Origin: a virus
Taxonomy: Duplodnaviria > Heunggongvirae > Uroviricota > Caudoviricetes
Virus record (IMG/VR): IMGVR_UViG_2851933302_000004
DNA: 40,715 bases
Direction: 5' to 3' (one strand)
The notes beneath the pieces were generated by a model, which searched no databases, was not told the origin of the DNA, and saw only the letters and a list, made by a program, of their open reading frames with translations. Made by a program: the position numbers and the translations under genes. Below, one piece after another: positions 10,963-29,555 of the stretch. The number at the start of each line of letters is the position of its first letter. Positions within the stretch are counted from its first letter, which is position 1.

Positions 10963-13900
10963 CTATTTCATCTGCTCTTCAACTTTATTTAGTAACGGTG
11001 ATATTGCCCACAGGTTCTGAAAAGGTAGCATTTTACGGACCGCGTGGGTTTGCTGGCTGTCAAATTCTCCGTTAAGTACACCATTCGCAACCGTCGCGGC
11101 ATCACCGCCAAGATCAAAGGTAGGACCAAGTAAAGCACCAATAGCATTACGACTCTGAAACCTTGATACCGGAGGCGCACCAAACATCGCGCCAAGACCA
11201 AACCTACCGCCGCTTATGTTCTCAACGGTATTCAGCGGCTCAGAGAGCCAGCCAAGCATTCCGCCCCGGTCGATCCCCTCTTTCACAAGGTTATTCCAGC
11301 TGTAGTCAATATCGCGACCGCTTAACTTCTGTTTCATCATATAGACCATTGAGCCAAGCGCAATCGTGCCAAGCGCACCAAGATAGAATGCAGCATCGCC
11401 CTGCTGGATACCAGATACCAGCACCCTGTTATGCTGTGCGAAGATAAACGTTTTGAACTGCGTGATCATCTTCCAGCCTTCTTTACTAAAAAACAGCGGT
11501 GTATCACCTACGCCAGGCGTTACAATCACTGAGTCTACATCTTTCAGCACTGCAGACTGGAAAATCTCTCTAGCGAAACGGTCATCCCACAGATGACTAT
11601 GCCCGGTTAACAGCCCGTCCATATCCTCTCCGTGCTTCCCGAATTGCTCCCCGATTCGGCGCAGAACATCTTCATTGATGCCGACCTGTGCCATCTTCCG
11701 CATTTCACTTTTGGAGAGCGTGCCACCAGCAGAAACTTGGCGAGCCGCGTCAAGTATCCTCGACTGCACTATCATCCCGGACCATGATTTAAGTGCGCTG
11801 TTCCACTGATTCATCAGCGTCCAGTTACCGAATTTCTGCGTCATCCAGTTCAGGCCTCGCTCAGCGGCGCTTCTCCGGCTATATGGGTCAGTAAGATCCG
11901 CTATAGCCTTTGTACGCGTAGACAGGACATAATCAAGCCCAACGGCCATTTCTCGCAAATCCCTGGTTGCAATTTTCACTGAGTCCATATTTTTAAGCAT
12001 GCTTACCATTGGTCCGAGAGATTTTCTCAGGCCATGCTGCATCATCGGTCGCATCAGATCAGTTGCAGCGGAGACAGTCATTCCACCAAGCAAACGGAGG
12101 AAGTTAATATTCCTAGCAACTCGCCCGGCACGAACAAAGAAACTGCGTGGATCTTGAGGTGCACCGTAAGTACCAAGCAGTCGATCACGCATAGCCGTAA
12201 TATCCCTAATATCAGCCTCCCGTTGCTTCTCAAGAACTGCACGTCGTTTAGGCGTTTTAGCCTCTTTTATTAGCCGGGTATATTCCTCACTAACCTGACG
12301 GATTTGCTCCCCCATATCTTTACGGCCAAACTGCGCAGTCAGCTCAATTTCTGGTGCCACCTGCCGGAGATAACTTTCCATGATGTAGTTAACATCTGAT
12401 TCAAGAAAATCTTCTATACGCTCATCAGGAATAAGCAGCGTTCTGCTTTTAGTGAAACCAGCCCGACCAACGAGTCTCTCTGGGATAATATCGGCTGGTA
12501 CAAGCCCGGAAGGTGCACCTATTATTTTATTCACGATCTCGTCAGCAGCGTCCTCTGCTTCCTCTCGGGATAGAGGCTCCATCTGCTTCAGTGCTCGTTC
12601 GCGGCTTGCATTCAGCCTTGTGGTTGAATTTGCCCGTTTTTGCAGTCGGCGAAGCTCAGAACGATATTTCCGTGGATTATCCAGCAACTCCATATGGCGC
12701 TGATAGACAGGAAGCTCACTCTTTGCCTGCGCTATATCATCAAGGCGTGTTTTAAGGTCAGAGCTTTCTTTCATCATTCTTGCCTGAAGTTTTTCTGATG
12801 AAGTCTCGGCCAACTCTTTTTCTATTCTTGTAAGACGCGCCTGTGTGTCAGTCTCCTGAGATATAAGCTTATTTCGTTTATCCAGTTCTTCCATGAGTAG
12901 AATTTTTTTACCAGACCATTTCTCCGCTTCAGCGATTTCACTAGCGAGAGCATCAGCGCGCGGTGCCGATTCCTCTGCAGTTTTTAGCAATGAATTTATC
13001 CTTTCAATTCGCTGACCTGCCTTGTCAGCACCTTTGGCACTAATCCCTTGTATCCAGTTGGCAATTCGCCCTCTGAATTCAGTGCGGTCGGAAAGTATCT
13101 TATCGAACTTATAAATGCGGGGAAGATAACTTTTCGCCGTCACGACATCGATATCCTCAGGAAGGATCCCCAGTTCCTGCATACGGGCTTTTGTGGTCTC
13201 GAAAATGGGGCGGATTCTGGCAGCTGCTTGTGAAACCTCAGGAATATCACTCTGATCACCACGGCGCATAGCCATGCCAACAGCTTCATTGAAATCAATA
13301 AAGTTCATCCTCTTCACGCCGCGGGCGCTAACAGATTTGCTGTACTGCTGGTAAGCATCACGAGTGGCTTCCATCTGCTTATAAAGCATGGCGTCGTATT
13401 GCTTAATCTTAGTCTCGACTGCCGTAAACGTAGCCAACCCCTCATCATTTTTGGCGAAGAAATAGTTATTTTCGGCAAGCTGCTGGTTAATCTGACGGGA
13501 GACAAGAGATGGTGATTGCGCCAAGCGGCCAGCAGGAGTGACACTCAACGTTTTGTTAGCAAGTCCAAGTCCAGCGAGCTGTTCCTGATCGAGTGTGGTA
13601 TTGAAAACCTGAGCTGCACCAATGCTTTGAGGAGAATCCATACCTCGCAAATGATTACCTACTGAGTTAACCACTGCCTCGCGCGCGCCAGGTCCAGCAA
13701 GTAGCTGTGCACCAGCACCAAGGATCCCACCAACGAGAGCATCAACAACAACGTTCGATACGCTCTCCATCGGTGAGCGAGCTTCCTGAGTGGCCTGTAA
13801 TGCGGCCTCTGAAGCAACACTGCCAGCAGCATTCGCCAGGGCAAAACGCCCGGCTGTTTCTGCAATACGACCGCCACGAACGACAGCGCCGAACGGAATA

Positions 13901-14352
13901 AACATAGAAATCGCATTGAATGGATCTGCTAATCTCATTGCTACAGAAGAGACTGTACCAGCAAATCCCAAGCCTGAATTGTATTCCATGTCAGCTCTCT
14001 GCTGATCGATTCGATGTTTAATTGCCATTGTTTCTTCAGGCGAACCGGAGTTGATAAACGAATCTGCAAAATCTTCATAGCCTTTAATATCTGCTGCATC
14101 GTTATCAAATGGGTTATATCCTTCAACCCTGTCAAACTGACTGAAAGGAGCACTGGCAATAAAGCTACCCAGCGTGTTATCTATACGAAATGCTGCTTGT
14201 CTAGACCTTTGAACGCGTTGATCACTGGTAAATGGGTTCACAGCAGAAAGCAAAGAAGGTGTTTCCATATAGAAATTACTGTCATCAGGTGCTGCTATTT
14301 GCTGAATATCCTCGCCAAGCAACTCTTTAGGATCCTGTTCATATATCGGCAT
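10963..14352 (-). CDS. Large internal virion / DNA-ejection protein (positional analogue of T7 gp16)
   Basis: 1129 aa, coiled-coil rich, last large gene of the structural block; assignment by size and gene order only. Confidence 0.5.
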   Translation of the reverse strand: MPIYEQDPKELLGEDIQQIAAPDDSNFYMETPSLLSAVNPFTSDQRVQRSRQAAFRIDNTLGSFIASAPFSQFDRVEGYNPFDNDAADIKGYEDFADSFINSGSPEETMAIKHRIDQQRADMEYNSGLGFAGTVSSVAMRLADPFNAISMFIPFGAVVRGGRIAETAGRFALANAAGSVASEAALQATQEARSPMESVSNVVVDALVGGILGAGAQLLAGPGAREAVVNSVGNHLRGMDSPQSIGAAQVFNTTLDQEQLAGLGLANKTLSVTPAGRLAQSPSLVSRQINQQLAENNYFFAKNDEGLATFTAVETKIKQYDAMLYKQMEATRDAYQQYSKSVSARGVKRMNFIDFNEAVGMAMRRGDQSDIPEVSQAAARIRPIFETTKARMQELGILPEDIDVVTAKSYLPRIYKFDKILSDRTEFRGRIANWIQGISAKGADKAGQRIERINSLLKTAEESAPRADALASEIAEAEKWSGKKILLMEELDKRNKLISQETDTQARLTRIEKELAETSSEKLQARMMKESSDLKTRLDDIAQAKSELPVYQRHMELLDNPRKYRSELRRLQKRANSTTRLNASRERALKQMEPLSREEAEDAADEIVNKIIGAPSGLVPADIIPERLVGRAGFTKSRTLLIPDERIEDFLESDVNYIMESYLRQVAPEIELTAQFGRKDMGEQIRQVSEEYTRLIKEAKTPKRRAVLEKQREADIRDITAMRDRLLGTYGAPQDPRSFFVRAGRVARNINFLRLLGGMTVSAATDLMRPMMQHGLRKSLGPMVSMLKNMDSVKIATRDLREMAVGLDYVLSTRTKAIADLTDPYSRRSAAERGLNWMTQKFGNWTLMNQWNSALKSWSGMIVQSRILDAARQVSAGGTLSKSEMRKMAQVGINEDVLRRIGEQFGKHGEDMDGLLTGHSHLWDDRFAREIFQSAVLKDVDSVIVTPGVGDTPLFFSKEGWKMITQFKTFIFAQHNRVLVSGIQQGDAAFYLGALGTIALGSMVYMMKQKLSGRDIDYSWNNLVKEGIDRGGMLGWLSEPLNTVENISGGRFGLGAMFGAPPVSRFQSRNAIGALLGPTFDLGGDAATVANGVLNGEFDSQQTHAVRKMLPFQNLWAISPLLNKVEEQMK

Positions 14353-17099
14353 TATTTGCCCCCTGCGTATATATTGCTCGGAAGGTAATTGGCTGAACCA
14401 TAACCGAATGGTTTGGTCAGATCTGGAGGAGTATATCCATCTTTATTGCTGAACTGCGGCAGCGGATTGCCTTCTCTCCGCACTCTAGCCTCATCAACAC
14501 GCTGTTGCTGGAACTGAATGGTTTGCCTGTACATTGGAGATGTCAGCTGATCCGGCTTGAAACGAACAGGGAGACCATTTTCTCCAATATAATTTCTCGG
14601 TTCTATCGCTCCGTTTGCGTCAGGCTGTAAAACCATAACAGCATAACTCCTATCCCTTGCCGTAAGGCCATCAGAAACAAGTATTAAGTCCGTATCACTG
14701 CGAGGACCGCCAAAGGATTTTGATTTAAGCTCGCGTTTTTCCTGCTCCCACTGCCCCTGTATCCAGTTACCAGCACCATTATTTACTCCGTACAATGCCT
14801 CAGGTGCATACTTCATAACCTCTGCTTTGCCATTAACTGTAGAAACTCCCCAGGTGGTTCTGATCATGGCATTGGTCATTTTCTCAGCCTGTTCTGCATC
14901 GCCACCTGTCTGTACAAAGTTAGCATCGTAAATTGTCTGGTAATCTCGCTGATAGGCCGCATTTGATTTTCCTGGATCGGTAATATCCGGAGACCACGAA
15001 CCAAAGGAAGTCAGACTGCTGGCGTTATTTTGTGCAGCAGTTGCCCTCGCCGCGACATATTTTTTGTCTCGCATGGCAGTGGAAAGCATCTGTTTCATTC
15101 GGTCATCCTGTTGGAACACCTGGCTGTAAGCCATATCAACAGCCTTATCCTCCGGCACGCCAGCGCGGGAATAATCGTAAACCTTGCCGTAAAATGCCAT
15201 CGTACTTTTATCAAGTGTTGCCGCTGCCGCCGGATTATTATCAAATAACTGACCGTAGAATTTTGCCATCGGGACAACCAGCGCAGGATCTCTTGATGTT
15301 GCTCCACTGTTAAGCATTGTTTTAACCTGAGTTGGTATCATGCCGCTTTTAGTTGTGACGGTGACCAGTGTATTGATGCTCTGCGGATCAGATATGGAAA
15401 ACGAAGGCGCGATATCCTGCGCGAAATAACGGTCTACCGCTGCCTGATTGTTTTTGTCGTTCGGGTCCAGCGGGAAGTTATTTTGCATTGAAGACACGAA
15501 CCTGTTTCTTCCCTGCTGAATCTCCCACTCCCTATCCATCTCTTTAAATTTGGCCTGCATTTTCTCCCAGCGTTGCTGGTTAGCTGCAAATCCAGGAGCG
15601 TTTGGATCCTGTGGACGTAAACGTTCAAGAATGTCTTGTCGTCCTTCTGGAGTGAGGTCTTTAGCGGCACCAATGACACCTCCATATTGTATCTGCGCCT
15701 GCATATCCTTCCACTTCATAGCGCCAATGCGCGGACCATTGGCCCGGATAAAATCGTCCTCAGAAGGTAACTTCTCAGGTTTCAATCCTTCATCAAGGGC
15801 TGAATATGCATCTTTAACTACGGTGCTAAGCTGGTCCGCATACTGCTGGCGGTACTGATTTCTCAGCTCATTAGCCTGCCTCAATGCCTGTATTTGCATT
15901 TGAGGGCTCATAGCGTCAAATGCCGCATTGCCCGTATAACGCTTAGGTGAATCAAGGTTAGTTAGACCAAGGGATGCCGAGATACCAGTTTCAAGCTGTT
16001 CGGTGCTATAAGGCATACTGCCATTTTCGTGTTTAATAATCCCAGCACATAAAGCAGCTAGTGTCTTTGGGTTAGAGATATCAAGCTGATCATTCTCCCC
16101 AACACCAAGCTCACTACACAATGCCCTAATATAAGCATCAGTATTATTACCATCACTAGCCGGAGCATAGCGATTAACAATCTCGCTAACGGTGTCATAG
16201 CCTTGACGCTGGTAAGACAACATATTTTTACCCAACGCGCGGATTCCATGCTCAGGGGTAGCAAACGTTGCAAAACGTCCATCGCTACCGATCTGACCTT
16301 CCCACGGGTTAGATTTGCTCGCTTCAATATTACCAGGGTTATTATTACGTAAACCACGAGCATCCAATGAATTACCATGTGATATTGCACGACTCACACC
16401 ATCAAGATCCCCTGGCTCTCCATTAACCTGAAGAAACTCGTTGTATTTTTGAGCGATATTTCCTATCCATGCTTGCTGCCCCATTTGTTCCTTGAGCTGA
16501 GTTTTCTGCTGAACACGCCACCCATCAGGAAGCCCATGTGCATCAGCGTATTGATCAATAGATTCAAATCGCTGCTTGGCTAAATCGACAAATGCTTGGT
16601 TATCGCTATATAGCCCCGCAGACTGAGTGACAGCCAATGCATTTCCTGACAAATACGTTTGATCTTGGAATTGCTGAAACTGCCCAACTTCATATCGACG
16701 TGCCTGATTGTAATAAGACTGCATAGACTGCTGGAGTTGAAAGGATAATTTATTCCTTTCCTCACTTTCAGGAATTGAGCCTAATAATGCCTGAGCCCTT
16801 TCCTGCATATTTTTCATAACAGCGTCACTCTGACCAAGAGCGTTTTTACCCTGTTTAGAAATCAGCCCATTTTCAGGGTTGTTAATCTGGTCATCTGCAA
16901 ATTGGTTAAATTGCAGTAACGCCTCCTGAGCCATAGCAACATTCGCTTTCTGCCTGGCTTCACCATATGCCACCGCATACTGATCTGCGACATTCGCCAG
17001 CACCTGACCTGCTTGAGGAACATCGAAGGTCTGAAAACCACCGGTTTGCACACCACGACTTTGCACCTGGCGTCCGGATGTAGTAGGAACAACTGGCAT
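14352..17099 (-). CDS. Internal virion protein (positional analogue of T7 gp15), possible cell-wall-degrading domain
   Basis: 915 aa; segment DARGLRNNNPGNIE..GIRALGKNMLSYQRQG is reminiscent of virion-associated hydrolase domains (uncertain); gene order. Confidence 0.5.
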   Translation of the reverse strand: MPVVPTTSGRQVQSRGVQTGGFQTFDVPQAGQVLANVADQYAVAYGEARQKANVAMAQEALLQFNQFADDQINNPENGLISKQGKNALGQSDAVMKNMQERAQALLGSIPESEERNKLSFQLQQSMQSYYNQARRYEVGQFQQFQDQTYLSGNALAVTQSAGLYSDNQAFVDLAKQRFESIDQYADAHGLPDGWRVQQKTQLKEQMGQQAWIGNIAQKYNEFLQVNGEPGDLDGVSRAISHGNSLDARGLRNNNPGNIEASKSNPWEGQIGSDGRFATFATPEHGIRALGKNMLSYQRQGYDTVSEIVNRYAPASDGNNTDAYIRALCSELGVGENDQLDISNPKTLAALCAGIIKHENGSMPYSTEQLETGISASLGLTNLDSPKRYTGNAAFDAMSPQMQIQALRQANELRNQYRQQYADQLSTVVKDAYSALDEGLKPEKLPSEDDFIRANGPRIGAMKWKDMQAQIQYGGVIGAAKDLTPEGRQDILERLRPQDPNAPGFAANQQRWEKMQAKFKEMDREWEIQQGRNRFVSSMQNNFPLDPNDKNNQAAVDRYFAQDIAPSFSISDPQSINTLVTVTTKSGMIPTQVKTMLNSGATSRDPALVVPMAKFYGQLFDNNPAAAATLDKSTMAFYGKVYDYSRAGVPEDKAVDMAYSQVFQQDDRMKQMLSTAMRDKKYVAARATAAQNNASSLTSFGSWSPDITDPGKSNAAYQRDYQTIYDANFVQTGGDAEQAEKMTNAMIRTTWGVSTVNGKAEVMKYAPEALYGVNNGAGNWIQGQWEQEKRELKSKSFGGPRSDTDLILVSDGLTARDRSYAVMVLQPDANGAIEPRNYIGENGLPVRFKPDQLTSPMYRQTIQFQQQRVDEARVRREGNPLPQFSNKDGYTPPDLTKPFGYGSANYLPSNIYAGGK

Positions 17100-17677
17100 C
17101 AGTAACCTCCTATTTTGAATCGGGAGTCAGAATTCATAAAACCTGAGTTAGATAACATTGGCGTCCCACCACTAGATGTACTTCCTTTAGAGAACGGACT
17201 CCACGTTCCGCCGCCCAACTTATATGCACCGTATGCTTTTAGTGGTGCTGTTAACAAAGTGCTGGTCATCGATGATTTAGCAGCCGACTGAGCAGCAGCC
17301 CCCTGTGCCTGAGCATTCATTCCCTGAACCTGATACCCATATGCCTCACGCTGAGCATTATTCACTGTCGTTAACGCATCAAGAGTGCCGAACTGAGCAT
17401 TATCCGCAAAAACGTCAAGAGCTGTTCCGCTACTTAATTCCGCACCGGTAGCCCCCATAGTGGCCGCCGCAGTGCCTGAGCGTTGACGCATTTCACGACG
17501 ACGCTGATCTGCTTCAATATTCCCACGATTGATTGAATCCTGTGCCTGAGCTTCAGCAATTTCAGCATTCCGATCAGCTATGGCTGACTGGTATTTTGCC
17601 TGCTTGCTCTGGCTGTACATTGACGCGGCTGTGGATGCCACTGTGACGGCAACCAAAGCGATGGCTGGGTTACACAT
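17099..17677 (-). CDS. Internal virion protein (positional analogue of T7 gp14)
   Basis: 192 aa, Ala/Gln/Gly-rich; gene order. Confidence 0.4.
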   Translation of the reverse strand: MCNPAIALVAVTVASTAASMYSQSKQAKYQSAIADRNAEIAEAQAQDSINRGNIEADQRRREMRQRSGTAAATMGATGAELSSGTALDVFADNAQFGTLDALTTVNNAQREAYGYQVQGMNAQAQGAAAQSAAKSSMTSTLLTAPLKAYGAYKLGGGTWSPFSKGSTSSGGTPMLSNSGFMNSDSRFKIGGY

Positions 17678-18141
17678 TATTTTCTCTCCATGTGAAATCT
17701 GTGGAAATTAAGACCAATAGCACCATAAGGCGCGGCTTCTTCAAGCCTGAATCCAAGCCAGTGCAGCCATGCTTTGGCAACATGGTTTCGCTCGTCGACG
17801 TAGTTTTCCAGGCGCGGATAAACTGCCAGCATCTGCTGCAATACAGGGCGGCAGTGGCGCAGAAATGTCTTCTGATATTTTTCAATACGGCTGGTCCCGA
17901 CCAGCCAGGGCGTACCATTGCCACCGATCATTGACGCCGGAGATACGCCAAACATGGTTACCAGTTCTCCGTTCGCGAACCCTGACCAGGCCATAGTCGC
18001 AGTACGCAGACCAACACGCAGCGCATCTTCGGTAGTCATCAGTGATACCGCATACAGTTCGTCAATATCAGCCTGACGAACATCCGGCAAAATCATCTGA
18101 AGATGCTCTTCGGTTGCGGGAATAATTTGAACATCGATCAT
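17677..18141 (-). CDS. Hypothetical virion or assembly protein (position of T7 gp13)
   Basis: 154 aa; translationally coupled to neighbours. Confidence 0.4.
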   Translation of the reverse strand: MIDVQIIPATEEHLQMILPDVRQADIDELYAVSLMTTEDALRVGLRTATMAWSGFANGELVTMFGVSPASMIGGNGTPWLVGTSRIEKYQKTFLRHCRPVLQQMLAVYPRLENYVDERNHVAKAWLHWLGFRLEEAAPYGAIGLNFHRFHMERK

Positions 18142-20612: not shown

Positions 20613-21220
20613 CAGGACAACCTCGCAATGGTAAACTCATCAACCGGTGGCTGTGGTTCCTGTGATTCATTCTGGCTATGCGAGCCAGCACTAAGAATCA
20701 CGCGATTGTACATATTGAGGGCAAACGTACCGAGGTCTGCATTCCCAGTCAGCGCCATGTTAATAGCTGCCGCAAGACGCCAGGCCAACGCCTCCATAAA
20801 AATGGCATCAAACATGTTCACATCTGTAACGCGAGAGACATACTTGAGCCATGCCTGAGGCTGGTCTGTGTAGATCAACTTTCCTGTTCCGTTGGTGTCT
20901 GCACCAACTTCGTACTGAACGCGCATTGCTGCTGTTGGATTGCGTACACCAGGAAGCATAATTTCAGTAATGCGCAGACAATCTGACGGGTACTGGTACG
21001 CATATTCCCAGTCAGGCGGTGGATTGCTCGTATCTGCAAGCGCCACGCGTTTGGTAGCAAAGTTCCAGTCAAAATCAGAAAGCACAGCATCACGACAGGC
21101 CTCAAAGTGCAGCGAACATTCCCCCGCTTCCTTGCTGGCTTCCGTCAGGCTGTTAATGCTGCGGCTGTTGCCAATATTGGACAGCGCACGATTACAGATC
21201 TCTACTACAGAGGCCATCAC
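20612..21220 (-). CDS. Tail tubular protein A-like (adaptor/gatekeeper) protein
   Basis: 202 aa; position between head genes and the 823-aa protein. Confidence 0.45.
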   Translation of the reverse strand: MMASVVEICNRALSNIGNSRSINSLTEASKEAGECSLHFEACRDAVLSDFDWNFATKRVALADTSNPPPDWEYAYQYPSDCLRITEIMLPGVRNPTAAMRVQYEVGADTNGTGKLIYTDQPQAWLKYVSRVTDVNMFDAIFMEALAWRLAAAINMALTGNADLGTFALNMYNRVILSAGSHSQNESQEPQPPVDEFTIARLS

Positions 21221-21546
21221 TCACCTCCGTTACCGTACAGAGTTTCAGCCGCTGATTTTTCTACATCCCCGGAAACAGGAGCGATCGCCATATCAGTGAT
21301 CTGCAGATCGGCGCTGCGATTAACGCCATCGTTAGTTTCTCTGGCAGACAGGCCTCGAATAACAGCCTTTGCAGTTATCATCACTTCCGTTCCGACGCCC
21401 TTAGGTTGCGCCTTCAGCTTATTCAATGTGTCGTTATTAAGAGTGATGCACAGCCCCCACGGGTATTCATCGCGAGTTCTGGTTTCTCCGCTCTCATCCT
21501 GGTAGCTGTCAGTGCCGGTTTTGAGGTTTACGAGTTCCATATACAC
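21217..21546 (-). CDS. Hypothetical virion protein
   Basis: 109 aa ORF in structural operon, coupled to downstream gene. Confidence 0.4.
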   Translation of the reverse strand: MYMELVNLKTGTDSYQDESGETRTRDEYPWGLCITLNNDTLNKLKAQPKGVGTEVMITAKAVIRGLSARETNDGVNRSADLQITDMAIAPVSGDVEKSAAETLYGNGGE

Positions 21547-21590: not shown

Positions 21591-21935
21591 TTACACGCCC
21601 AGTTCTTTACGCTTATCTGCGATCTTCTCGCGGAGCGTTTCGGCTTTGGCGTTATGGTGTGGCTTCTCGTTAAAGAGCAATTCGTACTCTTCACGGAGCT
21701 TATCCAGTTCACCATCATCTGACACATCGTTGATGATTTTGGTGCTGGTTGCTGCCATAGACACCTTTCCTGCTACCTTTGCTTTTGCCTGTCTGGCTGC
21801 ATCGTTAACAGGTTCCAGTGCGCTACCAGGCTCACCTTCGTATTCGATTTCTGCCCCCTCCGGCCACAGAGTGTTATGGATATGAGAGAGGCGCAGAACG
21901 CGGTATCTTGGTTTCTCACCTGACATCGATATCAC
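21591..21935 (-). CDS. Hypothetical virion protein
   Basis: 114 aa ORF in structural operon. Confidence 0.4.
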   Translation of the reverse strand: MISMSGEKPRYRVLRLSHIHNTLWPEGAEIEYEGEPGSALEPVNDAARQAKAKVAGKVSMAATSTKIINDVSDDGELDKLREEYELLFNEKPHHNAKAETLREKIADKRKELGV

Positions 21936-21936: not shown

Positions 21937-22374
21937 TTAACCAGTTACTTTTGAGAGGATCGGATACGGCGTATTGGCATCAACATCAAGACTGATACCA
22001 GCAGTGAATTCGCCAGCCGTTAGTGGGCCAGTTGCGACGGAGTAGTTAACACGCAGATATCGCTGAACACCGGCAGGCACCTTTGCAGAAACAACTCGTT
22101 TACCTGCTGTCAGGGCGGTCTTTGCCAGTGCGCCACTATCATAAATAGTGGTCCATGAGCTGTTATTCTCACTCGTCTGCAACTGGATGTTTACAGTTGC
22201 ATCACCGCTTGCCGCGGCGGCTGTGTTAACCAGCGCCCAAAACTCAAGCGGGTAACCCACGCCGATATCACGACGTTTTCCGTCAATTGGACCGAGATCG
22301 ATTACGTCAGTAGAAGCCGCGGTATTCGTAACCGCCTGAGCTTCGGAGAACATCAACAGTTTGTCGGTGATCAT
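21937..22374 (-). CDS. Hypothetical virion protein, possible capsid decoration protein
   Basis: 145 aa beta-rich protein directly downstream of major capsid gene. Confidence 0.4.
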   Translation of the reverse strand: MITDKLLMFSEAQAVTNTAASTDVIDLGPIDGKRRDIGVGYPLEFWALVNTAAAASGDATVNIQLQTSENNSSWTTIYDSGALAKTALTAGKRVVSAKVPAGVQRYLRVNYSVATGPLTAGEFTAGISLDVDANTPYPILSKVTG

Positions 22375-22425: not shown

Positions 22426-23418
22426 TTACACCACGCGGGCTTCTGTTTCCAGAAGCGCATCAGTTTCACGGATTGGTACACCACGGAATGAAGTCCACCA
22501 CTCGCCTTCTGTCTCTTTTACGCTGATCGCCAGAGATGTTTTCTCCAGAGATTGCAGATCAAGAGCCTGGCCTACAGTGCGGTTCATGTAGAACACCGGG
22601 CGACCCATGCCACGATTTGGAATGCGATGCAGTGCTTTAACCATCAACTTCGCAATATTTGCGGCAGAGGAAGGTTCTGAAAGATTGCTGACATCGATGT
22701 TTGCAATGCGAACAACATAACGCCAGTCACGCAGAGCAAGTCCGTTGTCCCATTTGTAATGGGTACGGTAGCCTTCGTACTTGCCGCCATTAGCATCTTC
22801 CAGTGTCACCTGGCCTTTATCTTCCATCTGAATGCCAGCCTTCTGCCCTTTCGGGAAGATGCCATGCACTGTGTTTTCGCCCCACACCACTAACCAGATT
22901 GAGGTGTTATCTGTACCCGTGCCACCAGCATCAATGATGTTCTGAGCATTACCTGCAGACAGGCTGGAATAGCGGGAGGACAGTCCCATAAACTGCTGAG
23001 GGTTAACGCTGGAATCACCATAAAACAGCGTCTGCGCCATCTGCTGATTCATCGCTTCAATAAATGCGCGGTCTTCAGACAGGCGGAATTCGGCGGTATT
23101 ACCGTTCAGATCAGCCAGTGACTTATCGACTTCAGCATAGGTTTCCAGCATTCCAACGGAATCGGTGACCTGCACTGTGGTTGATTTGCTTGGCTGTACG
23201 CCATAGTTCAGCAAACGCCAGGTGGCTGAAGGTAAACCAGAACGAATGGTGGTTCGGTGTCCGGTAGGAAGGTTCCCTTCGACAAAAGGCATATCCTGAA
23301 GGATCGGGTTAGTTTGACCGAGAAGCTCGATAATCTTATCGACTTTCCCGTTTTTATCGACGCGCTTACCCCAGTCAGCCAGCGTTAGCGCAGTTAAGCC
23401 TTTAACAGCCATTGTCAT
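22426..23418 (-). CDS. Major capsid protein
   Basis: 330 aa; follows scaffold gene; size and composition typical of HK97-fold podovirus capsid proteins. Confidence 0.7.
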   Translation of the reverse strand: MTMAVKGLTALTLADWGKRVDKNGKVDKIIELLGQTNPILQDMPFVEGNLPTGHRTTIRSGLPSATWRLLNYGVQPSKSTTVQVTDSVGMLETYAEVDKSLADLNGNTAEFRLSEDRAFIEAMNQQMAQTLFYGDSSVNPQQFMGLSSRYSSLSAGNAQNIIDAGGTGTDNTSIWLVVWGENTVHGIFPKGQKAGIQMEDKGQVTLEDANGGKYEGYRTHYKWDNGLALRDWRYVVRIANIDVSNLSEPSSAANIAKLMVKALHRIPNRGMGRPVFYMNRTVGQALDLQSLEKTSLAISVKETEGEWWTSFRGVPIRETDALLETEARVV

Positions 23419-23426
23419 TTCCTCTC

Positions 23427-24128
23427 TTATTTGCCATAGAGCACTTCGGCCGCACTACGCTGGCCTTCATTACCACCGGTGACCATGCCATCTTCAGACA
23501 TCGCCTTTCCGATTTTCACGAACGTTTTGACCAGATCAGGGTGATTACCCAGCCCGGTGGTGTTCAGATATTCTTTGAGTTCAGGTGTCCCGAACTGGTC
23601 AAGCGCACGCTGTGCGGCGCTAAGGTTAGAAATCAACTTGTCGCCACCGATTTCTTTGTCAGCTTTTACATCCGCAGCCCACTGCTCGGTTGTTTTCTGC
23701 CAGGCTTCTGCCTGGCGCTGCTGAACACCTGCCAGAATCTTCGGATAAGCATCAACCAGCTTTTGCGCTTGCTCGTTGGTCAGGTTAAGTTCTCGCGCCA
23801 CCGGCTCGAATTCCTTCAACGCTTCTGTATCCAGCTCTACGCCTTCGGCAGCCTGAAACTCGTACTTCTCAGGCGCACCCTCTGGTTTATCGCCGTCCTT
23901 TTTTTCATCCTGCTTATCGTTTTCAGGCTTTTTGTCATCAGCAGGTTTATCGCCATCAGCAACAGGTTGTGGCTTATCACCTTCCTGTTGTGATGGATCA
24001 CCAACTGGAGCAGGGTTATCACCTGCAGGCGCTGACGGTTCTGACGCAGCCGGAGCTGCTCCACCATCGACTGGTTGCTCATTGCAAAGACGGCTATACA
24101 GCAAACGCTCAAATAAATTCATGATCAC
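23427..24128 (-). CDS. Scaffolding protein
   Basis: 233 aa acidic, Pro/Asp/Lys-rich low-complexity N-terminus, helical C-terminus; between portal and capsid genes. Confidence 0.6.
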   Translation of the reverse strand: MIMNLFERLLYSRLCNEQPVDGGAAPAASEPSAPAGDNPAPVGDPSQQEGDKPQPVADGDKPADDKKPENDKQDEKKDGDKPEGAPEKYEFQAAEGVELDTEALKEFEPVARELNLTNEQAQKLVDAYPKILAGVQQRQAEAWQKTTEQWAADVKADKEIGGDKLISNLSAAQRALDQFGTPELKEYLNTTGLGNHPDLVKTFVKIGKAMSEDGMVTGGNEGQRSAAEVLYGK

Positions 24129-24421
24129 TCCTGTTCACTGGCCTCTTTGGCCATCTTCAAATACTGTTCAGGACAATGCGCCATAACGCGCTGAAACAGT
24201 TCCAGCGCCAGATTGCGTTGCCCCTCATTAAATGCCATTGCCATAGCGTCCATCGGTGAGATAGCGGAAAACACACGGCCTTTCTCCAGCACCGACCAGA
24301 CAACGCGACGCCCCTGTTCACTGCTCATGACAAAGCGAATGTCATCAATTTCACGCTGTGCCATGTCACGTTGCTTACGGGCGTTTTCTTCTTTCAGTTG
24401 ATCGTCTTCGTAATCTGTCAT
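24125..24421 (-). CDS. Hypothetical small protein between portal and scaffold genes
   Basis: 98 aa ORF, overlapping stops and starts with neighbours. Confidence 0.4.
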   Translation of the reverse strand: MTDYEDDQLKEENARKQRDMAQREIDDIRFVMSSEQGRRVVWSVLEKGRVFSAISPMDAMAMAFNEGQRNLALELFQRVMAHCPEQYLKMAKEASEQE

Positions 24422-26097
24422 TGTGATTGCCCACCCTGACCACTAACTGCATTCGCCATAGCTGACAAAACACTCGGATCCGAAGTTTTAGCTTCGCTTA
24501 GCGTCTTGGCACCCTGTGCCGCCGCCATCCCCATCGCCATCATTTGTTGCTGCTGTTGCTGCTGTGCCCGTTGCTGGCGAGCCTGCTCAACCTGTTCCTG
24601 CGGAACAATGACGGTTGGAGACACTCCGGACATATCAGCGAATGCATCGATCGCCTGATCAACGTTGAGTTTGTCGAGAGCTTCTGGTTTCGCTTGCGCA
24701 AGTTGACCAATGAAGTTAACCGTGGACGCCAGACTGGACAGGCCGATAGACTTCTGCGCCTGAGCCATGACGGAAATGTATTCGACCTTCAGGGGCATAC
24801 CTTCCATCACGTCTGGCGGTGGCGGCAGCATGTTTTTACGCACCATCATCGAGAAAGAGCGGTCAATGAGAGGATTAAGACATTCGTCGTTCAGACGCTC
24901 CAGAACCGGCCCCAACATCAGAAGTTTTTCTTCTTTCATTTCGATCACCGCTTCAACAGGCATCGAGCGGGTATTGATGTTCTGCAACATCATGAACAGA
25001 TCGACAAAGTAGGCGCTGTTAATGATTTGACGAGTGTCCTGAATGTCTGCCACCAAATCTGCTGTACTGGGGTTAACCAGATAAGCAGGCCTGAAACCAT
25101 CCTGACCAGTAATCTGATCGATATACGTGATGTCGCCAGGAAGAAGGGAGGCACGCTGATTCTTGAGGGAAGTCGGAGCAACCATCGGCGGATTGGTGGC
25201 TTTATCAATCAACTGCGACTTGCGCTTCTGGAGAAGCTGCAATGCCTTAACAGGTCCAAGCGCCAGCATACCCGGGCATGATGATCCATAAACATCTTCG
25301 CCGTTAACTTCCCAGCGCGGAGCCATAATTGGAAACTCATCGAATCCGGACTCACGCAACAACTTGTCGTTATCGCCACCAACCTCGTAATAAACCGATT
25401 TGAATGGCTTGTTCTTGCTATCCAGCTTCGATGTATCGCGGTCAATGTTCGGGTAAACCGAATGCATCACTTCAATCCACTTCTCGTAGGTGCCGCTTTC
25501 CCACATGCTTTTTACGGATTCGCTGACGTTATTTAGCCCGAACTCCTGAACAAGCTGACGAACAGTCATAGAGAACTTGCGAAAACAGGTGTCCACACTG
25601 CCACGAGGTGAGTTAGCCAGGTAGTAACTGCCTATCGGGAATGGCATTGTGCGAATGATGTCCTCGTCATCCTCCAGCACCGCCATTGCACCAGTGCTGT
25701 ATGTGCCGAGGCTTCCGTATAACTGCGGAAGAGACTGGTAGAGATTCGACTTATTGAACATATCGTTCATGCGGTTCTGCACCGCCTCGAGCCACAACTT
25801 AACAGGACCATAATCCATCATTTCAGGATCTGGCGTAGCCAGGCGAAACCACGGACGCGCAGGGCTTGTGATGCCTGACATCATGCCGCTGGCGAGAGTG
25901 CGCGCCGCCATAGTCCCGGTCGAATCAATAATGCGTGTATTGCGTCGATCGTTACGGTTGACTTCAGAAGTCAGAAAGCGGGAACCACGCGGGTTGATGT
26001 AATCACTCAACTCGCGCCAGTGCGGCTCGAACGACTGACGCTCGCTTTCAAGTTGTGCGAACTGTTTGTTCAATCGCTCTTTAGTTGTTTCCGCCAT
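24418..26097 (-). CDS. Portal protein
   Basis: 559 aa with Gln-rich C-terminus; first gene of head block; size and order. Confidence 0.7.
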   Translation of the reverse strand: MAETTKERLNKQFAQLESERQSFEPHWRELSDYINPRGSRFLTSEVNRNDRRNTRIIDSTGTMAARTLASGMMSGITSPARPWFRLATPDPEMMDYGPVKLWLEAVQNRMNDMFNKSNLYQSLPQLYGSLGTYSTGAMAVLEDDEDIIRTMPFPIGSYYLANSPRGSVDTCFRKFSMTVRQLVQEFGLNNVSESVKSMWESGTYEKWIEVMHSVYPNIDRDTSKLDSKNKPFKSVYYEVGGDNDKLLRESGFDEFPIMAPRWEVNGEDVYGSSCPGMLALGPVKALQLLQKRKSQLIDKATNPPMVAPTSLKNQRASLLPGDITYIDQITGQDGFRPAYLVNPSTADLVADIQDTRQIINSAYFVDLFMMLQNINTRSMPVEAVIEMKEEKLLMLGPVLERLNDECLNPLIDRSFSMMVRKNMLPPPPDVMEGMPLKVEYISVMAQAQKSIGLSSLASTVNFIGQLAQAKPEALDKLNVDQAIDAFADMSGVSPTVIVPQEQVEQARQQRAQQQQQQQMMAMGMAAAQGAKTLSEAKTSDPSVLSAMANAVSGQGGQSQ

Positions 26098-26745: not shown

Positions 26746-26822
26746 GTGGCATTAGCTCAGTTGGACAGAGCAACCGCCTTCTAAGCGGTTGGTCGCAGGT
26801 TCGAATCCTGCATGCCACGCCA
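26746..26822 (+). tRNA. tRNA-Arg (anticodon UCU), phage-encoded
   Basis: Cloverleaf folded by hand: 7-bp acceptor stem GTGGCAT/ATGCCAC, D-arm GCTC/GAGC, anticodon stem ACCGC/GCGGT with loop CTTCTAA, T-arm GCAGG-TTCGAAT-CCTGC, encoded CCA; resembles host argU with compensatory stem changes. Confidence 0.9.
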
Positions 26823-27443: not shown

Positions 27444-27447
27444 CGCC

Positions 27448-27462
27448 GTGACATGTCACAAT
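27448..27462. repeat. Palindromic repeat CGTGACATGTCACAAT copy B, just downstream of large terminase
   Basis: Identical 16-mer also at 29663..29678; core GTGACATGTCAC is a perfect 12-bp palindrome. Confidence 0.6.
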
Positions 27463-27463
27463 C

Positions 27464-27489
27464 AGCCCGCCGATTCGCGGGCTTTTTTA
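27464..27489 (+). terminator. Rho-independent terminator after the moron gene
   Basis: AGCCCGC-CGATTC-GCGGGCT followed by TTTTTT. Confidence 0.6.
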
Positions 27490-28962
27490 TGCAAAAGGAT
27501 CATAGTCTGTGATGGCTTTGCCTTGCTGGTTCTGCTGCCCGGGAATTCGCAGACGCTTCGACACAGGGAACGCAAACGTCAGCAGTAGCGCATCGCCTTT
27601 ACCAGGAGAACGCCCAAGTCGCTCTTTGATATCTTCCTTCGGTTCGATAACGATTTTACCGTCCACGCGAACTTTGTACTCTGCCGTCGACAGGTCGTCC
27701 GCTGTTTCCTGGTCATCCAGCATGCCGCCGAGCCTCAGCCATGTCTTGCATGAGTTGAACATCTCCCCACGCTTGTTGAGCATCTGCGGGTCAGTAGACG
27801 CGCCACCGAACGGAACAAGTTGCCATGTACGACCCCAGCCGTCACCGATTGACTTCAAACCGGTTCCGTAACCGAAGTCGATGAACACCGCGTCAGCCTG
27901 ATACTGGTCTTCAAAGTCAGCGATACGCTTCGCCATAATCAGATCGTCGGTAGTCTTGTTGCCAGTCCACAGCACCTTACTGTGTAGCCCCTGCCGCAGG
28001 TATATCACCGCGTCATCAACGCCTGAATATGCCGGGTCAACACCGATTATCACCGGAGCATGTGCCACCTGCGCAGCGGTTACCACCCGTTTCATTGCCT
28101 CGTCAGTAAGACCGGTAGGGATAAACTGCAATTCAGATGCATCAGGGAATATGCCACGCACACGGATTTTAACGAAGTCGCTATCTTCCCCATAGTCATC
28201 AACCCATTTCTGCAACTGCTGTTTGTTGGTGCCTTCCACCGTCCTGCTGTCAATCTGCGCAGTTTTCCAGCGGTGTTTGTATTTGCGGAAACATTCACGG
28301 AAACGCCCGGTGTTACGTGTAGGGTTTCCGAAAGCCACCCAGATAATCTCAGTGTCTTCGTCCGTTAGCGCACCCTCGGCAACTTCCCACACCAGATCCG
28401 CAATGTTCGACGCTTCATCAAATACCACGATGATGCGTTTACGCTCGTTGTGTAGTCCGGCGAATGCCTCAGTGTTGTGCTCAGACCAGGGGATTGCGTC
28501 AGCTCGCCACCGCTTGTCGTGCCCAGGGTCATTGCTGTACATCGCGGTAGCGGTACAGGTAAACCAGTCTTTCGTGATAGCAAGGTTTGACCACTTGATA
28601 ATTTCCGGCCAGGTCTTCGTTCGTAGCTGGTTGTCGGTGTTGGCGGTCACCACGACCTTACAATCCTCGCAAGTGGACATGCCCCAGTTGATCAGCATTG
28701 AGATGAATGCGGATTTACCAATACCGTGACCAGAAGCACGTGCCAGCATAAGCGGCTGATATCGCGTCTCTGGATTCTGCAGGTGATCACGTATCTCTCG
28801 GAACGCATCGGCCTGCCACTGACGTGGACCGGTGGCATGTGCCAGTTCAGTACCCTCTTCCCCCCACGGGAACGCATAGAGGGCATAGCCAAGCGGATCG
28901 TGAGTGAACCCTGCAATATCCTCGATTAACTGCTCTTCAGGAGATAACGCTGTATCTGTCAC
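27487..28962 (-). CDS. Terminase large subunit
   Basis: 491 aa; Walker A-like ASGHGIGKS, ATPase and nuclease segments; coupled to upstream small subunit. Confidence 0.85.
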   Translation of the reverse strand: MTDTALSPEEQLIEDIAGFTHDPLGYALYAFPWGEEGTELAHATGPRQWQADAFREIRDHLQNPETRYQPLMLARASGHGIGKSAFISMLINWGMSTCEDCKVVVTANTDNQLRTKTWPEIIKWSNLAITKDWFTCTATAMYSNDPGHDKRWRADAIPWSEHNTEAFAGLHNERKRIIVVFDEASNIADLVWEVAEGALTDEDTEIIWVAFGNPTRNTGRFRECFRKYKHRWKTAQIDSRTVEGTNKQQLQKWVDDYGEDSDFVKIRVRGIFPDASELQFIPTGLTDEAMKRVVTAAQVAHAPVIIGVDPAYSGVDDAVIYLRQGLHSKVLWTGNKTTDDLIMAKRIADFEDQYQADAVFIDFGYGTGLKSIGDGWGRTWQLVPFGGASTDPQMLNKRGEMFNSCKTWLRLGGMLDDQETADDLSTAEYKVRVDGKIVIEPKEDIKERLGRSPGKGDALLLTFAFPVSKRLRIPGQQNQQGKAITDYDPFA

Positions 28963-29555
28963 TGATTGCCATCCTGGCGTTCTTTCAGTCTCTTCCTGGC
29001 TGCCGCTATGCGATCAGCAATTGTCACATTCACATTAACATCCAGGCGTTCTTTGAATGCGTTGACGTCGACGTGCTTACCAATCAGTTCGAGGTTCTTC
29101 ACCTTGTCAGGCCATTTAATTTTTTTGAGGATTGTCTCTATCGAATCCTCGTTCATGTTCATGATGGTCGATGACAGATCAAAGCCACTAAGCGTAGTGC
29201 GCCAGATTTTCGGCCACTCGCGGATTGGCTTAAGGCTCCCATCGTCGTTGAGGATGTCGATCACGTCCATCTGGTCGATCTCCACCAGGCGCATGAGAAC
29301 GTAATCAGCACTGACGCGCATTCGTTTGTTGCGCTCTTCCATCAGCTCGGCAATCCGTTTTTGAATGCGTTCATCGCGCATCATGAGACTGGCTTTAACT
29401 GCCGCTGTATTTGGGGAGAATCCTGCGTTAATCGCTGCCTGAGTCTGGTTTTCAGGCGTTTTGATGTATGACTGGCAATAAGCCTCCTGCATTGCTGTTA
29501 GTGGCTTAAATTGCGTTGATTTGCGTTTATAGGCTTTAGGTTCAGCAGGCATCAT
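28959..29555 (-). CDS. Terminase small subunit; start placed at internal ATG
   Basis: ORF 28959..29651 trimmed to ATG 29555 because a hairpin terminator lies at 29596..29624; protein resembles recalled terminase small subunit families. Confidence 0.55.
   Translation of the reverse strand: MMPAEPKAYKRKSTQFKPLTAMQEAYCQSYIKTPENQTQAAINAGFSPNTAAVKASLMMRDERIQKRIAELMEERNKRMRVSADYVLMRLVEIDQMDVIDILNDDGSLKPIREWPKIWRTTLSGFDLSSTIMNMNEDSIETILKKIKWPDKVKNLELIGKHVDVNAFKERLDVNVNVTIADRIAAARKRLKERQDGNQ

Follow-up and report, generated by a model that had tools for sequence, protein, structure and literature searches.

How should a viral element be classified whose virion genes run in the order of phage T7 and which also carries lambda-style early genes and an integrase? 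The question was raised by a preliminary description of positions 10963 to 29555 of the virus record IMGVR_UViG_2851933302_000004 (40,715 nt; the whole stretch analyzed is here referred to as the window), which regarded this mosaic as unusual. We put the probability at roughly 93% that the element is an essentially complete temperate short-tailed prophage of the epsilon15/phiV10 type (Uetakevirus or its immediate neighborhood), placed at the guaA 3' end by its P4-type integrase, and that its likeness to T7 reflects ancient shared ancestry. The analysis itself established what the element is, its synteny, its att core, the assignment of its proteins to families and folds, and the breakpoints of an ejection-gene cassette.

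The window corresponds to a ~39.7-kb prophage that sits at the guaA 3' end in the Escherichia coli IHE3034 lineage. Compared with IHE3034, the late block is 100% identical and the entire window 99.93% identical, with a 1-nt indel in the early region holding the MT-A70 methylase and ead genes. A 17-bp direct repeat is found at both prophage ends: the attL core, AATCATTCCCACTCAAT, lies at 1163..1179 (no strand assigned), and a second one, ~190 nt past the end of the window, overlaps the stop codon of guaA. Read in reverse complement, this sequence equals the attP/attB core reported for vB_EcoP_ZX5 (ZX5), a short-tailed phage of K1 hosts that has been isolated, integrates at guaA, and is spontaneously induced (PMC9782041). 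The tyrosine integrase (39465..40715, - strand) matches Pfam Arm-DNA-bind_3, Phage_int_M, and Phage_integrase. Its Arm-DNA-bind_3 N-terminus is of the P4 type, as had been proposed, and the phiV10 orthologue is annotated cd00801 INT_P4.

The ORF sizes and order of the late block were as first described, and all of these genes lie on the - strand. The terminase genes sit upstream of the portal gene. TerS (28959-29633, ORF to 29651; Pfam Terminase_2) is 77% identical to epsilon15 gp1, and the 491-aa TerL (27487-28962) is 94% identical to epsilon15 gp2; the epsilon15 RefSeq record relates both to Sf6/SF6-type terminases by HHpred. The end point originally given to the block, 29555, falls within the TerS gene. 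Between the terminase and portal genes, ARAGORN placed a tRNA-Arg (TCT) on the + strand (26746..26822), and the records of relatives also annotate a tRNA-Arg in the matched late region. The 559-aa portal protein (24418-26097) belongs to the T7 gp8 family (Pfam PF12236 Head-tail_con, 623 bits), and it and T7 gp8 are reciprocal PHROG cross-matches. The next protein, in the scaffold position (231-233 aa; 23427-24122, ORF to 24128), is probably a scaffold, as previously named, judging by its composition: the N-terminal half is P/D/E/K-rich and of low complexity, and the C-terminal half, read by eye, is likely helical. RefSeq and PHROGs (phrog_458, "protease") instead annotate a peptidase, for which Pfam, NCBIfam, and PDB searches gave no support. 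The major capsid protein (22426-23412, ORF to 23418) is of the epsilon15 gp7 family (Pfam PF20911 GP7, 496 bits). Between the capsid and adaptor genes lie three small capsid-associated genes that were missing from the first gene list: a Bbp16-type cement gene (21937-22374; Pfam Bbp16 and RefSeq name), a 111-aa accessory ORF (21591-21926), and a gp10-type "staple" gene (21217-21540; RefSeq name). Their products are 36-42% identical to epsilon15 gp8, gp9, and gp10.

The 202- and 823-aa proteins, previously likened to tail tubular proteins A and B, matched a solved connector and nozzle. The adaptor (tubular tail protein A, T7 gp11 position; 201-202 aa; 20612-21217, ORF to 21220) matches PDB 8ck1_E "Connector Protein" (E 4e-26), phrog_394 "tail protein," and phrog_9239 "tail tubular protein" and is 85% identical to epsilon15 gp11, for which RefSeq notes an HHpred match to T7 tail tubular protein A. 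The 823-aa nozzle (tubular tail protein B, T7 gp12 position; 18141-20612) matches PDB 8ck1_A "Tail Nozzle" over its full length (E 1e-217) and is 88% identical to epsilon15 gp12, which has been matched to T7 gp12 by HMM-HMM comparison (Hardies et al. 2016, PMC4819975).

The four proteins that follow also agreed with their earlier assignment to T7 gp13 through gp16. Internal virion protein A (154 aa; 17677-18141) falls in phrog_308, the PHROG common to T7 gp13, and is 63% identical to epsilon15 gp13. Protein B (192 aa; 17099-17677) belongs to the T7 gp14 family (Pfam PF24072 T7_gp14, 36.4 bits, with the cut-off at 27; phrog_418) and shows 62-64% identity to phiV10 p17 and epsilon15 gp14. Ejection protein C (915 aa; 14352-17099) is predicted to be highly helical, and the top four PDB matches of its predicted model in Foldseek were all T7 gp15; some of its 75 BFVD matches are named internal virion proteins. 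Embedded in this gp15-like body is a lysozyme-like muralytic domain (~residues 245-380). Ejection protein D (1129 aa; 10963-14352) matches phrog_342 (779 bits), which is also the best match of T7 gp16. The match covers profile positions 192-1227, without positions 1-191, and by its sequence the protein is without an N-terminal muralytic domain. T7 gp16 gave colinear BLASTP matches to 8 of 149 representatives of the 1129-aa family, an HMM of the family's representatives matched T7 gp16 alone (E 4.4e-5, negative controls included), and hhalign of the 1129-aa protein against gp16 gave a weak, colinear alignment (probability 22%) with the motif GKMxxQFKxF. Its predicted model is all-helical, with a pLDDT of 49, too low for fold comparison. 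Profile and structure comparison, the check suggested at the outset for the three large proteins, thus recovered gp15 by fold and gp16 by PHROG and HMM; shallow profiles of the 823- and 915-aa proteins did not reach T7 gp12 and gp15, respectively. The late operon ends with a gene for a 283-aa secreted Cys-rich protein (10110..10961) with a signal-peptide-like N-terminus (phrog_6118, unknown function), followed by a terminator-like site at 10103-10086. With strong family, PHROG, or homologue matches for each, the late-block genes are real.

The preliminary description would have been refuted by large late proteins belonging to the tape measure or baseplate of a sipho- or myovirus. Both the 915- and 1129-aa proteins are highly helical, and the former matches phrog_2276 "tail length tape measure protein" (E 2e-29), but this match is restricted to residues 196-411, around the muralytic domain, which is found in some tape measures. 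Moreover, the window has no genes for a tail tube, a sheath, a tape measure or its chaperone, or a baseplate, the 823-aa protein is homologous to a solved podovirus nozzle, and electron microscopy shows close relatives to be podoviruses (PMC4819975, PMC9782041). We give a long-tailed phage practically no credence.

Given a short-tailed prophage, its T7 likeness might still stem from a recent cross of a lambdoid phage with a lytic T7-like one (Autographiviridae), giving an unusual new mosaic. Gene order and sizes do parallel T7 gp8-gp16 (559/201/823/154/192/915/1129 aa here versus 536/196/794/138/196/747/1318 aa in T7), and the 1129-aa protein lies in the T7 gp16 PHROG, outside which epsilon15 gp17 falls. 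However, BLASTP against every T7 late protein found nothing significant; the ORFs of at least 500 aa in the window encode only the portal, nozzle, two ejection proteins, and tailspike, with no phage RNA polymerase among them; the capsid and the terminases upstream of the portal are of epsilon15 and Sf6/SF6-related types; and the same architecture recurs in published phages and across enterobacterial genomes numbering in the hundreds. A recent chimera is accordingly very improbable. The resemblance, visible only to profile or fold methods, is ancient homology of the podovirus tail and ejectosome module; the tail and internal virion proteins of epsilon15 have been shown to be homologous to those of T7 (Hardies et al. 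2016, PMC4819975). Nor is the combination unusual: the epsilon15/phiV10 group is known by its mix of T7-related tail and ejection genes with lambda-style early genes and an integrase, a defining architecture already published for epsilon15, phiV10, and ZX5 (PMC4819975, PMC9782041). The preliminary description is therefore partly supported: its protein assignments were largely right, but its claim of unusualness and the recent T7 x lambda hybrid that it implied do not hold.

Outside the virion block, the lysis cassette (1290..3087, - strand; Pfam, RefSeq) has the gene order of epsilon15 and phiV10: a DUF2514 spanin-like gene (1290-1772), a GH19 endolysin gene (1769-2398), and two holin genes (2388-2696 and 2683-3087). 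The 1039-aa tailspike (3394..6513, - strand; Pfam End_beta_propel, 775 bits, with End_tail_spike, End_N_terminal, and Peptidase_S74) fuses an epsilon15-type N-terminal particle-binding domain (its residues 1-165 share 71% identity with epsilon15 gp20) to a K1 endosialidase and a C-terminal chaperone. A BRO-N domain protein (8352..9047, + strand; Pfam Bro-N), a putative anti-repressor, occupies the position of phiV10 p23, and a CI-type HTH repressor (34830..35414, + strand; Pfam HTH_3) that of the epsilon15 and phiV10 repressors. The replication pair (32481..34078, - strand; Pfam), once taken for lambda O/P, includes a true lambda P-family loader (32481-33281; PF06992, 191 bits), but the initiator (33263-34078) has HTH_36 and DnaT domains and is not lambda O; six iteron-like repeats, TCCCGTTTTYGG, lie within its gene at 33676-33816 (0.31 expected). 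The recombination pair (36222..37921, + strand; Pfam), a PD-(D/E)XK (DUF3799) nuclease (36222-37043) and RecT (37040-37921), is RecET-like and not, as first read, a Red-like Exo/Bet pair.

One modest twist within the group is an alternative 7.6-kb ejection cassette in place of the phiV10 type. Nucleotide identity to phiV10 ends at window position ~17673 and returns at ~10105, an exchange almost base for base in length: proteins of 192, 915, 1129, and 283 aa here stand against 181, 837, 600, 824, and 46 aa in phiV10. BLASTP of the 1129-aa protein against phiV10 p20 found no similarity except in a weak motif region. The sewage isolate EC.W1-9 (PP445227) holds the same four-gene cassette, including a homologue of the 283-aa gene.

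By homology with characterized relatives, lysogeny would be set by the CI-type repressor and countered by the BRO-type anti-repressor, and the DnaT-domain initiator would bind the iterons within its own gene, assisted by the lambda P-type helicase loader. The terminase pair would fill an HK97-fold capsid of the epsilon15 type, strengthened with staple and cement proteins, and portal, adaptor, and nozzle would form a T7-type tail stack. Endosialidase tailspikes would attach to the polysialic-acid capsule of K1 hosts and break it down; the 154-, 192-, 915-, and 1129-aa proteins, packaged as an internal core, would be ejected at infection to form a trans-envelope channel, with the lysozyme-like domain of the 915-aa protein cutting peptidoglycan. 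We infer the virion morphology, ejection mechanism, and inducibility of this IHE3034-lineage prophage from such relatives and its genes. It might instead be a defective cryptic remnant, passed on vertically within the ST95/K1 lineage and no longer capable of virion production: RefSeq marks the MT-A70 methyltransferase as frameshifted and the ead/Ea22-like gene as truncated, and the 1-nt indel lies in the same early region. Some decay has thus occurred, but it is confined to nonessential, accessory genes; all genes for virion structure, lysis, replication, regulation, and integration are full-length and syntenic with those of viable phages, both att cores are intact, the isolated phage EC.W1-9 shares the late block, variant cassette included (93% covered at 97.7% identity), and ZX5 demonstrates spontaneous induction of such phages (PMC9782041). 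We consider a cryptic remnant unlikely and favor the essentially complete prophage.

Whole-genome comparison with temperate podoviruses, also suggested initially, placed the element in the epsilon15/phiV10 group, with gene-for-gene synteny to both. By a VIRIDIC-like measure of intergenomic similarity, the window scores ~0.81 with EC.W1-9, 0.62 with phiV10, and 0.34 with epsilon15; epsilon15 and phiV10 score 0.38 with each other, yet both are classified in Uetakevirus. EC.W1-9, the most similar overall and without a genus in its record, has integrase, lysis, and recombination genes of the same type but differs in stretches of the early and nin-like region and in its 624-aa "eliminase" tailspike, where this prophage has an endosialidase. 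phiV10 and ZX5 (Uetakevirus) are syntenic throughout, with 97-98% nucleotide identity from terminase through gp13 and in most early genes, and share the integrase and guaA att core. phiV10 differs by an O-acetyltransferase moron and an O157 tailspike, whereas ZX5, whose host is K1, has essentially the same endosialidase region (99.5% identity) and loses identity at the same right-hand point as phiV10. Epsilon15, the Salmonella phage that typifies the group, is a podovirus with an internal core characterized by cryo-EM. It shares the terminase-to-lysis gene order and the capsid, staple, and cement families, with further identities of 81% (portal) and 63-64% (gp13/gp14). It differs in its major capsid protein, which is 43% identical, in its tailspike, serotype-conversion genes, and replication genes and in having three large ejection proteins, gp15/16/17 (842/634/918 aa), of which gp17 is in phrog_684 and not phrog_342.

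CUS-3, a P22-like prophage of E. coli K1 RS218, is K1 specific like this one, and its siaK1 is 99.5% identical at the nucleotide level to the endosialidase catalytic part (nt 3423-5815). It matches in this 2.4-kb segment only, 24% of a 9.8-kb query that ran from the att end up to where the ejection cassette begins, and the N-terminal tailspike domain here is instead epsilon15-type. T7 differs in the types of its capsid, terminase, and tailspike, and the prophage is temperate, with an integrase and without a phage RNA polymerase. The muralytic domain, at the N-terminus of gp16 in T7, here lies inside the gp15-like protein. Family- or fold-level links nonetheless extend to gp8, gp13, gp14, gp15, and gp16, and the same function would be expected, with the internal core ejected as a trans-envelope channel in both.

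By RefSeq annotation, the window starts at yfgH/yfgI and enters a prophage that ends with an integrase beside guaA. A 17-bp direct repeat, AATCATTCCCACTCAAT, has its first copy at 1163-1179 and its second over the guaA stop codon, ~190 nt beyond the window end; these two positions give an element of ~39.7 kb. Its reverse complement is the attP/attB core reported for vB_EcoP_ZX5 (PMC9782041), and the integration core at the guaA 3' end, attgagtgggaatgatt, one copy of which covers the guaA stop codon, matches that of ZX5 exactly. This phage is a temperate, short-tailed Uetakevirus isolate that is spontaneously induced, infects a K1 strain and integrates at the guaA 3' end (PMC9782041). The integrase is of the P4 type, as had been proposed, with Pfam matches to the arm-binding domain Arm-DNA-bind_3 (DUF4102; PF13356, 72 bits), the central domain (PF22022, 46 bits) and the tyrosine recombinase catalytic domain (PF00589, 69 bits).

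When the prophage was searched in thirds by megablast, the epsilon15/phiV10 group was recovered in each third, with phiV10, O157 typing phages 9 and 10, TL-2011b, ZX5, PAS61, Tyrion and epsilon15 among the relatives. Close relatives are podoviruses by electron microscopy (PMC4819975, PMC9782041), and the virion predicted for a member of the group has a short noncontractile tail, six tailspikes and an internal core. The genome-wide comparison with temperate podoviruses called for in the preliminary description gave VIRIDIC-like similarities of 0.81 to the isolated phage EC.W1-9, 0.62 to phiV10 and 0.34 to epsilon15. Since epsilon15 and phiV10, both accepted Uetakevirus members, are 0.38 similar to each other on the same measure, the prophage falls inside the existing spread of the group; at 0.62, the similarity to phiV10 falls short of the 70% customarily used as a genus guideline, and formal placement in Uetakevirus is a matter for taxonomists. 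Side-by-side annotation of the Escherichia coli IHE3034 chromosomal locus, epsilon15 and phiV10, with BLASTP pairs, showed that gene order agrees gene for gene with both phages, following the order shared by the group: terS, terL, portal, scaffold/protease, major capsid protein, cement/staple, adaptor, nozzle, internal proteins, tailspike, lysis, int, recombination, repressor and replication. The late block matches the IHE3034 chromosome at 100% identity, and 116 of 5,426 complete E. coli genomes carry at least 80% of it. The prophage is one more representative of an already published phage type; our literature search found no description of this particular IHE3034 prophage.

Outside the late block, the window differs from the IHE3034 RefSeq record by SNPs at 3146 and 4401, by one extra A in an A-run at 31173, inside an ead/Ea22-like region that RefSeq calls a pseudogene, and by a 24-nt insertion at 33713-33736 that adds one more repeat unit in frame. 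The source of the window is probably a sister strain, or an assembly other than the IHE3034 RefSeq one. In the RefSeq annotation, visible decay is limited to a frameshifted MT-A70 adenine methyltransferase (38621-39270, plus strand), a region across which the window still has two ORFs, and a truncated ead/Ea22-like gene (30823-31134, minus strand).

A six-frame ORF list reproduced the claimed sizes and order of the late ORFs, all on the minus strand: terS (28959-29651), terL (27487-28962), the 559-aa portal (24418-26097), a 233-aa ORF and the major capsid gene (22426-23418), followed by ORFs of 202, 823, 154, 192, 915 and 1129 aa down to 10963. The right edge had been set at 29555, which lies inside terS, and the gene list had passed over three small genes between the capsid and 202-aa genes, encoding a Bbp16-type cement protein, a 111-aa ORF and a gp10-type staple. 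The late ORFs are real genes and not chance ORFs: every protein has strong family or homologue matches, and the block is preserved without change in IHE3034. The assignments made for the late block proved largely right in family, PHROG and fold matches. NCBIfam gave no usable match for any late protein. Most of these genes are still "hypothetical protein" or "DUF919" in RefSeq and can now be named as adaptor, nozzle and internal virion proteins A to D.

The capsid is of the epsilon15 type, with matches to the gp7-family major capsid protein (PF20911, 496 bits) and the Bbp16-like cement protein (PF21190, 160 bits) and a staple 42% identical to epsilon15 gp10 by BLASTP. The terminase genes precede the portal gene, and the large and small subunits are 94% and 77% identical to their epsilon15 counterparts. 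The large subunit, whose counterpart is epsilon15 gp2, had no Pfam or NCBIfam match at an E value of ≤0.01, which reflects a gap in the family libraries; the epsilon15 record ties this protein to the Sf6 terminase by HHpred. A 231-aa protein (23427-24122, minus strand) is annotated as "peptidase" or "putative endoprotease" throughout the phage group. Its gene occupies the position of the T7 scaffold gene, and the protein has a low-complexity N-terminal half rich in Pro, Asp, Glu and Lys, followed by a half that appears helical from its sequence. Protease-family support was absent from Pfam and NCBIfam, and a PDB search was also empty; the long-standing peptidase annotation may be wrong, and the protein may be a scaffold instead. 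A tRNA-Arg gene (anticodon TCT; 26746-26822, plus strand) lies in the interval from the terminase to the portal genes, on the other strand from the late operon, and records of phiV10-type relatives also annotate a tRNA-Arg inside the matched late region.

We compared all 18 late proteins with T7 gp8 to gp19 by pairwise BLASTP and found no significant match, so any relationship to T7 is remote. The relationship is present at the family or fold level. The portal matches the T7 gp8 family, Head-tail_con (PF12236), with 623 bits, and the PHROG cross-matches are reciprocal (T7 gp8 to phrog_332, 1.5e-31; window portal to phrog_449, 4.5e-24). The 823-aa nozzle (18141-20612, minus strand) gave a full-length match to a solved "Tail Nozzle" (PDB 8ck1_A; E value of 1e-217), and the 201-aa adaptor (20612-21217, minus strand) matched a solved "Connector Protein" (8ck1_E; E value of 4e-26) as well as phrog_9239, "tail tubular protein". 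A literature search on PDB code 8CK1 found no relevant paper. Their epsilon15 counterparts, gp12 and gp11, share 88% and 85% identity with them, respectively. By BLASTP, the adaptor had no direct match to T7 gp11, which falls in a different PHROG; the link between them rests on an HHpred note in the epsilon15 RefSeq record and on Hardies 2016 (PMC4819975). That study also reported a strong HMM-HMM match (E value of <1e-10) between epsilon15 gp12 and T7 gp12, the tubular-B groups, and standard IVP-A, IVP-B and IVP-D homologues in epsilon15 (PMC4819975). The predicted link of the nozzle to T7 gp12 rests on this match for epsilon15. Our own nozzle profile was shallow (Neff of 1.2), as the homologue search returned only sequences at least 82% identical and the profile was not deepened, and neither hhalign nor hmmsearch linked it to T7 gp12. 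When the PDB was searched with family profiles of the 1129-, 915- and 823-aa proteins, T7 gp16, gp15 and gp12, respectively, were not recovered.

Among the internal virion proteins, the 154-aa protein shares phrog_308 with T7 gp13, and the 192-aa protein passes the Pfam T7_gp14 cutoff (36.4 bits against 27). The AlphaFold model of the 915-aa protein (14352-17099, minus strand) was usable, with a pLDDT of 77. In a Foldseek search of the whole PDB, its best four matches (9jyy_G, 7k5c_A, 7eyb_A and 6yt5_A; E values of 1.6e-4 to 1.5e-2) were all T7 internal virion protein gp15. Against predicted viral structures, the same model had 75 matches at an E value of ≤1e-3; among them were internal virion protein C of Vibrio phage VP3, internal virion proteins of JG068 and RSB3, and the "lysozyme" of the phiKMV-type phage LKA1. 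An hhalign comparison of the shallow 915-aa family alignment with the single T7 gp15 sequence was negative. The 915-aa protein is a T7 gp15-type internal protein C, and it carries an embedded Enc34-type lysozyme domain.

The 1129-aa protein (10963-14352, minus strand) matches phrog_342 with 779 bits over profile positions 192-1227, and T7 gp16 has the same best PHROG. Its family comprises 5,524 representative clusters, in which the C-terminal ~540 aa are conserved. T7 gp16 gave eight colinear BLASTP matches among 149 representatives of this family, while the control queries T7 gp15, epsilon15 gp15 and epsilon15 gp16 gave zero. When an HMM built from the family representatives was searched against 31 T7 and epsilon15 proteins, T7 gp16 was the sole match (E value of 4.4e-5 at PDB-size Z). 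The hhalign comparison with T7 gp16 was weak (22% probability), with the motif GKMxxQFKxF in the same colinear C-terminal region. The AlphaFold model is all-helical, and its pLDDT of 49, from 13 close homologues, was too poor for a fold search. On these profile and PHROG matches, we class the protein as a T7 gp16-type internal protein D without the N-terminal muralytic domain of T7 gp16.

The large proteins could instead have been tape-measure or baseplate proteins of a sipho- or myovirus. The sole "tape measure" signal was a PHROG match that did not extend beyond the muralytic domain of the 915-aa protein, and neither the ORF list nor the RefSeq annotation of the window contains tube, sheath or baseplate genes; we rejected this identity.

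The ejection genes differ from those of the type phages. Identity of the phiV10 type (~98%) spans terS to the end of the 154-aa gene, stops at ~17673 and resumes at ~10105, directly after a terminator. Between these points the window encodes proteins of 192, 915, 1129 and 283 aa in 7,567 bp, and phiV10 encodes proteins of 181, 837, 600, 824 and 46 aa in 7,500 bp. There are two large ejection proteins here and three (gp15, gp16 and gp17 types) in the type phages. Similarity of the 915-aa protein to epsilon15 gp15 and phiV10 p18 is limited to its N-terminal 500 aa, at 44% identity. By BLASTP, the 1129-aa protein showed no similarity to gp16, gp17, p19 or p20 beyond a weak motif region; it belongs to phrog_342, not to phrog_684 or phrog_1145, and epsilon15 gp17 is in another PHROG than T7 gp16. 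The resemblance to the sizes and order of T7 gp13 to gp16 that the preliminary description had remarked on therefore belongs to this cassette variant and not to the type phages. EC.W1-9 carries this cassette too; several Serratia, Pectobacterium and Rahnella contigs each encode homologues of both the 915- and the 1129-aa protein, and Klebsiella phages have partial DNA matches to the cassette. The cassette is neither new to databases nor evidently nonfunctional, and the two-large-protein form is a variant common to EC.W1-9, not a formal genus criterion.

We tentatively propose, with a probability of roughly 40%, that the cassette at ~10106-17672 is a distinct, functionally self-contained ejectosome type that took the place of the three-protein gp15/16/17 cassette as one unit of matching length; as part of the same reading, the exchange may have occurred on an otherwise near-identical portal-adaptor-nozzle chassis. 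If this is true, podovirus ejectosomes would be interchangeable modules needing only a compatible gp13 and nozzle interface. The cassette swap itself provides two naturally near-isogenic phages that differ in their ejection proteins.

The 283-aa protein (10110-10961, minus strand) is Cys rich and has a signal-peptide-like N terminus. Its gene lies in a low-GC stretch and closes the late operon, with a terminator-like hairpin behind it at 10103-10086. The protein is a member of phrog_6118 (unknown function), had no Pfam or PADLOC match, and travels with the variant cassette in EC.W1-9. It could be a moron or a periplasm-acting factor in infection or exclusion.

The tailspike (3394-6513, minus strand) is chimeric. 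Residues 1 to 165 are 71% identical to the epsilon15 gp20 N terminus, and nucleotides 3423-5815 are 99.5% identical to the endosialidase gene of the P22-like K1 prophage CUS-3; the protein has the full endosialidase Pfam domains and a C-terminal chaperone. ZX5 has the same tailspike arrangement (PMC9782041). The endosialidase tailspike marks the prophage as specific for the K1 capsule, and its host genome belongs to a K1 pathogen lineage. Identity of the whole element with P22-like CUS-3 was considered and rejected. In the moron region that separates the tailspike and BRO genes, RefSeq annotates a YafO-family type II toxin (6991-7497) that overlaps the upstream 147-aa ORF (7487-7930, minus strand). 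At the thresholds used, neither Pfam nor PADLOC confirmed the toxin, and PADLOC was empty for the moron genes.

In the early region, the proposed lambda-type O/P pair held for its second member only: the loader is a genuine lambda P family protein (PF06992, 191 bits), and the initiator has HTH_36 and DnaT domains in Pfam rather than belonging to the lambda O/Phage_rep_O family. Six iteron-like repeats TCCCGTTTTYGG, all in the same orientation, lie at 33676-33816, inside the initiator gene (33263-34078, minus strand), where 0.31 would be expected by chance. Lambda has its origin inside the initiator gene, and the iteron-like repeats keep the same layout here. The recombination genes, described as Red-like, encode RecT (PF03837) and a DUF3799 PD-(D/E)XK nuclease; this pair is RecET-like, not Red Exo/Bet, and is functionally analogous to Red. 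The switch genes encode a CI-type HTH repressor and a BRO-N protein.

Homology suggests how these parts would work together. The integrase would recombine the 17-bp core at guaA, and the repressor and anti-repressor would set the lysis-lysogeny decision. The initiator would bind its own iterons, with the P-type loader recruiting host DnaB. Terminase would fill an epsilon15-type capsid bearing a short tail of portal, adaptor and nozzle. On infection, the endosialidase tailspikes would remove the K1 capsule. Core proteins of the gp14-, gp15- and gp16-like types would be ejected and build a conduit across the periplasm, and the lysozyme-like domain in the 915-aa protein would open the peptidoglycan.

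The mosaic, in which lambda-style early genes and a P4-type integrase are combined with a T7-related tail and ejectosome, had been called unusual. Temperate podoviruses of this make-up became known with the epsilon15 and phiV10 genomes. With the close isolated relatives ZX5 and EC.W1-9 already in GenBank as well, the mosaic has little discovery value. A recent T7 × lambda hybrid was considered as an origin and rejected. In the ORF list, the only ORFs of at least 500 aa are the portal, nozzle, two ejection proteins and tailspike, and a phage RNA polymerase is absent. Autographiviridae have a single-subunit RNA polymerase, are strictly lytic and lack an integrase, whereas this element has an integrase, a repressor and att sites and leaves no ORF of at least 500 aa unassigned. 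It differs from T7 itself in its capsid, which has a gp7-family protein of the epsilon15 type plus staple and cement proteins, in its epsilon15-like terminase pair encoded ahead of the portal, and in its temperate lifestyle.
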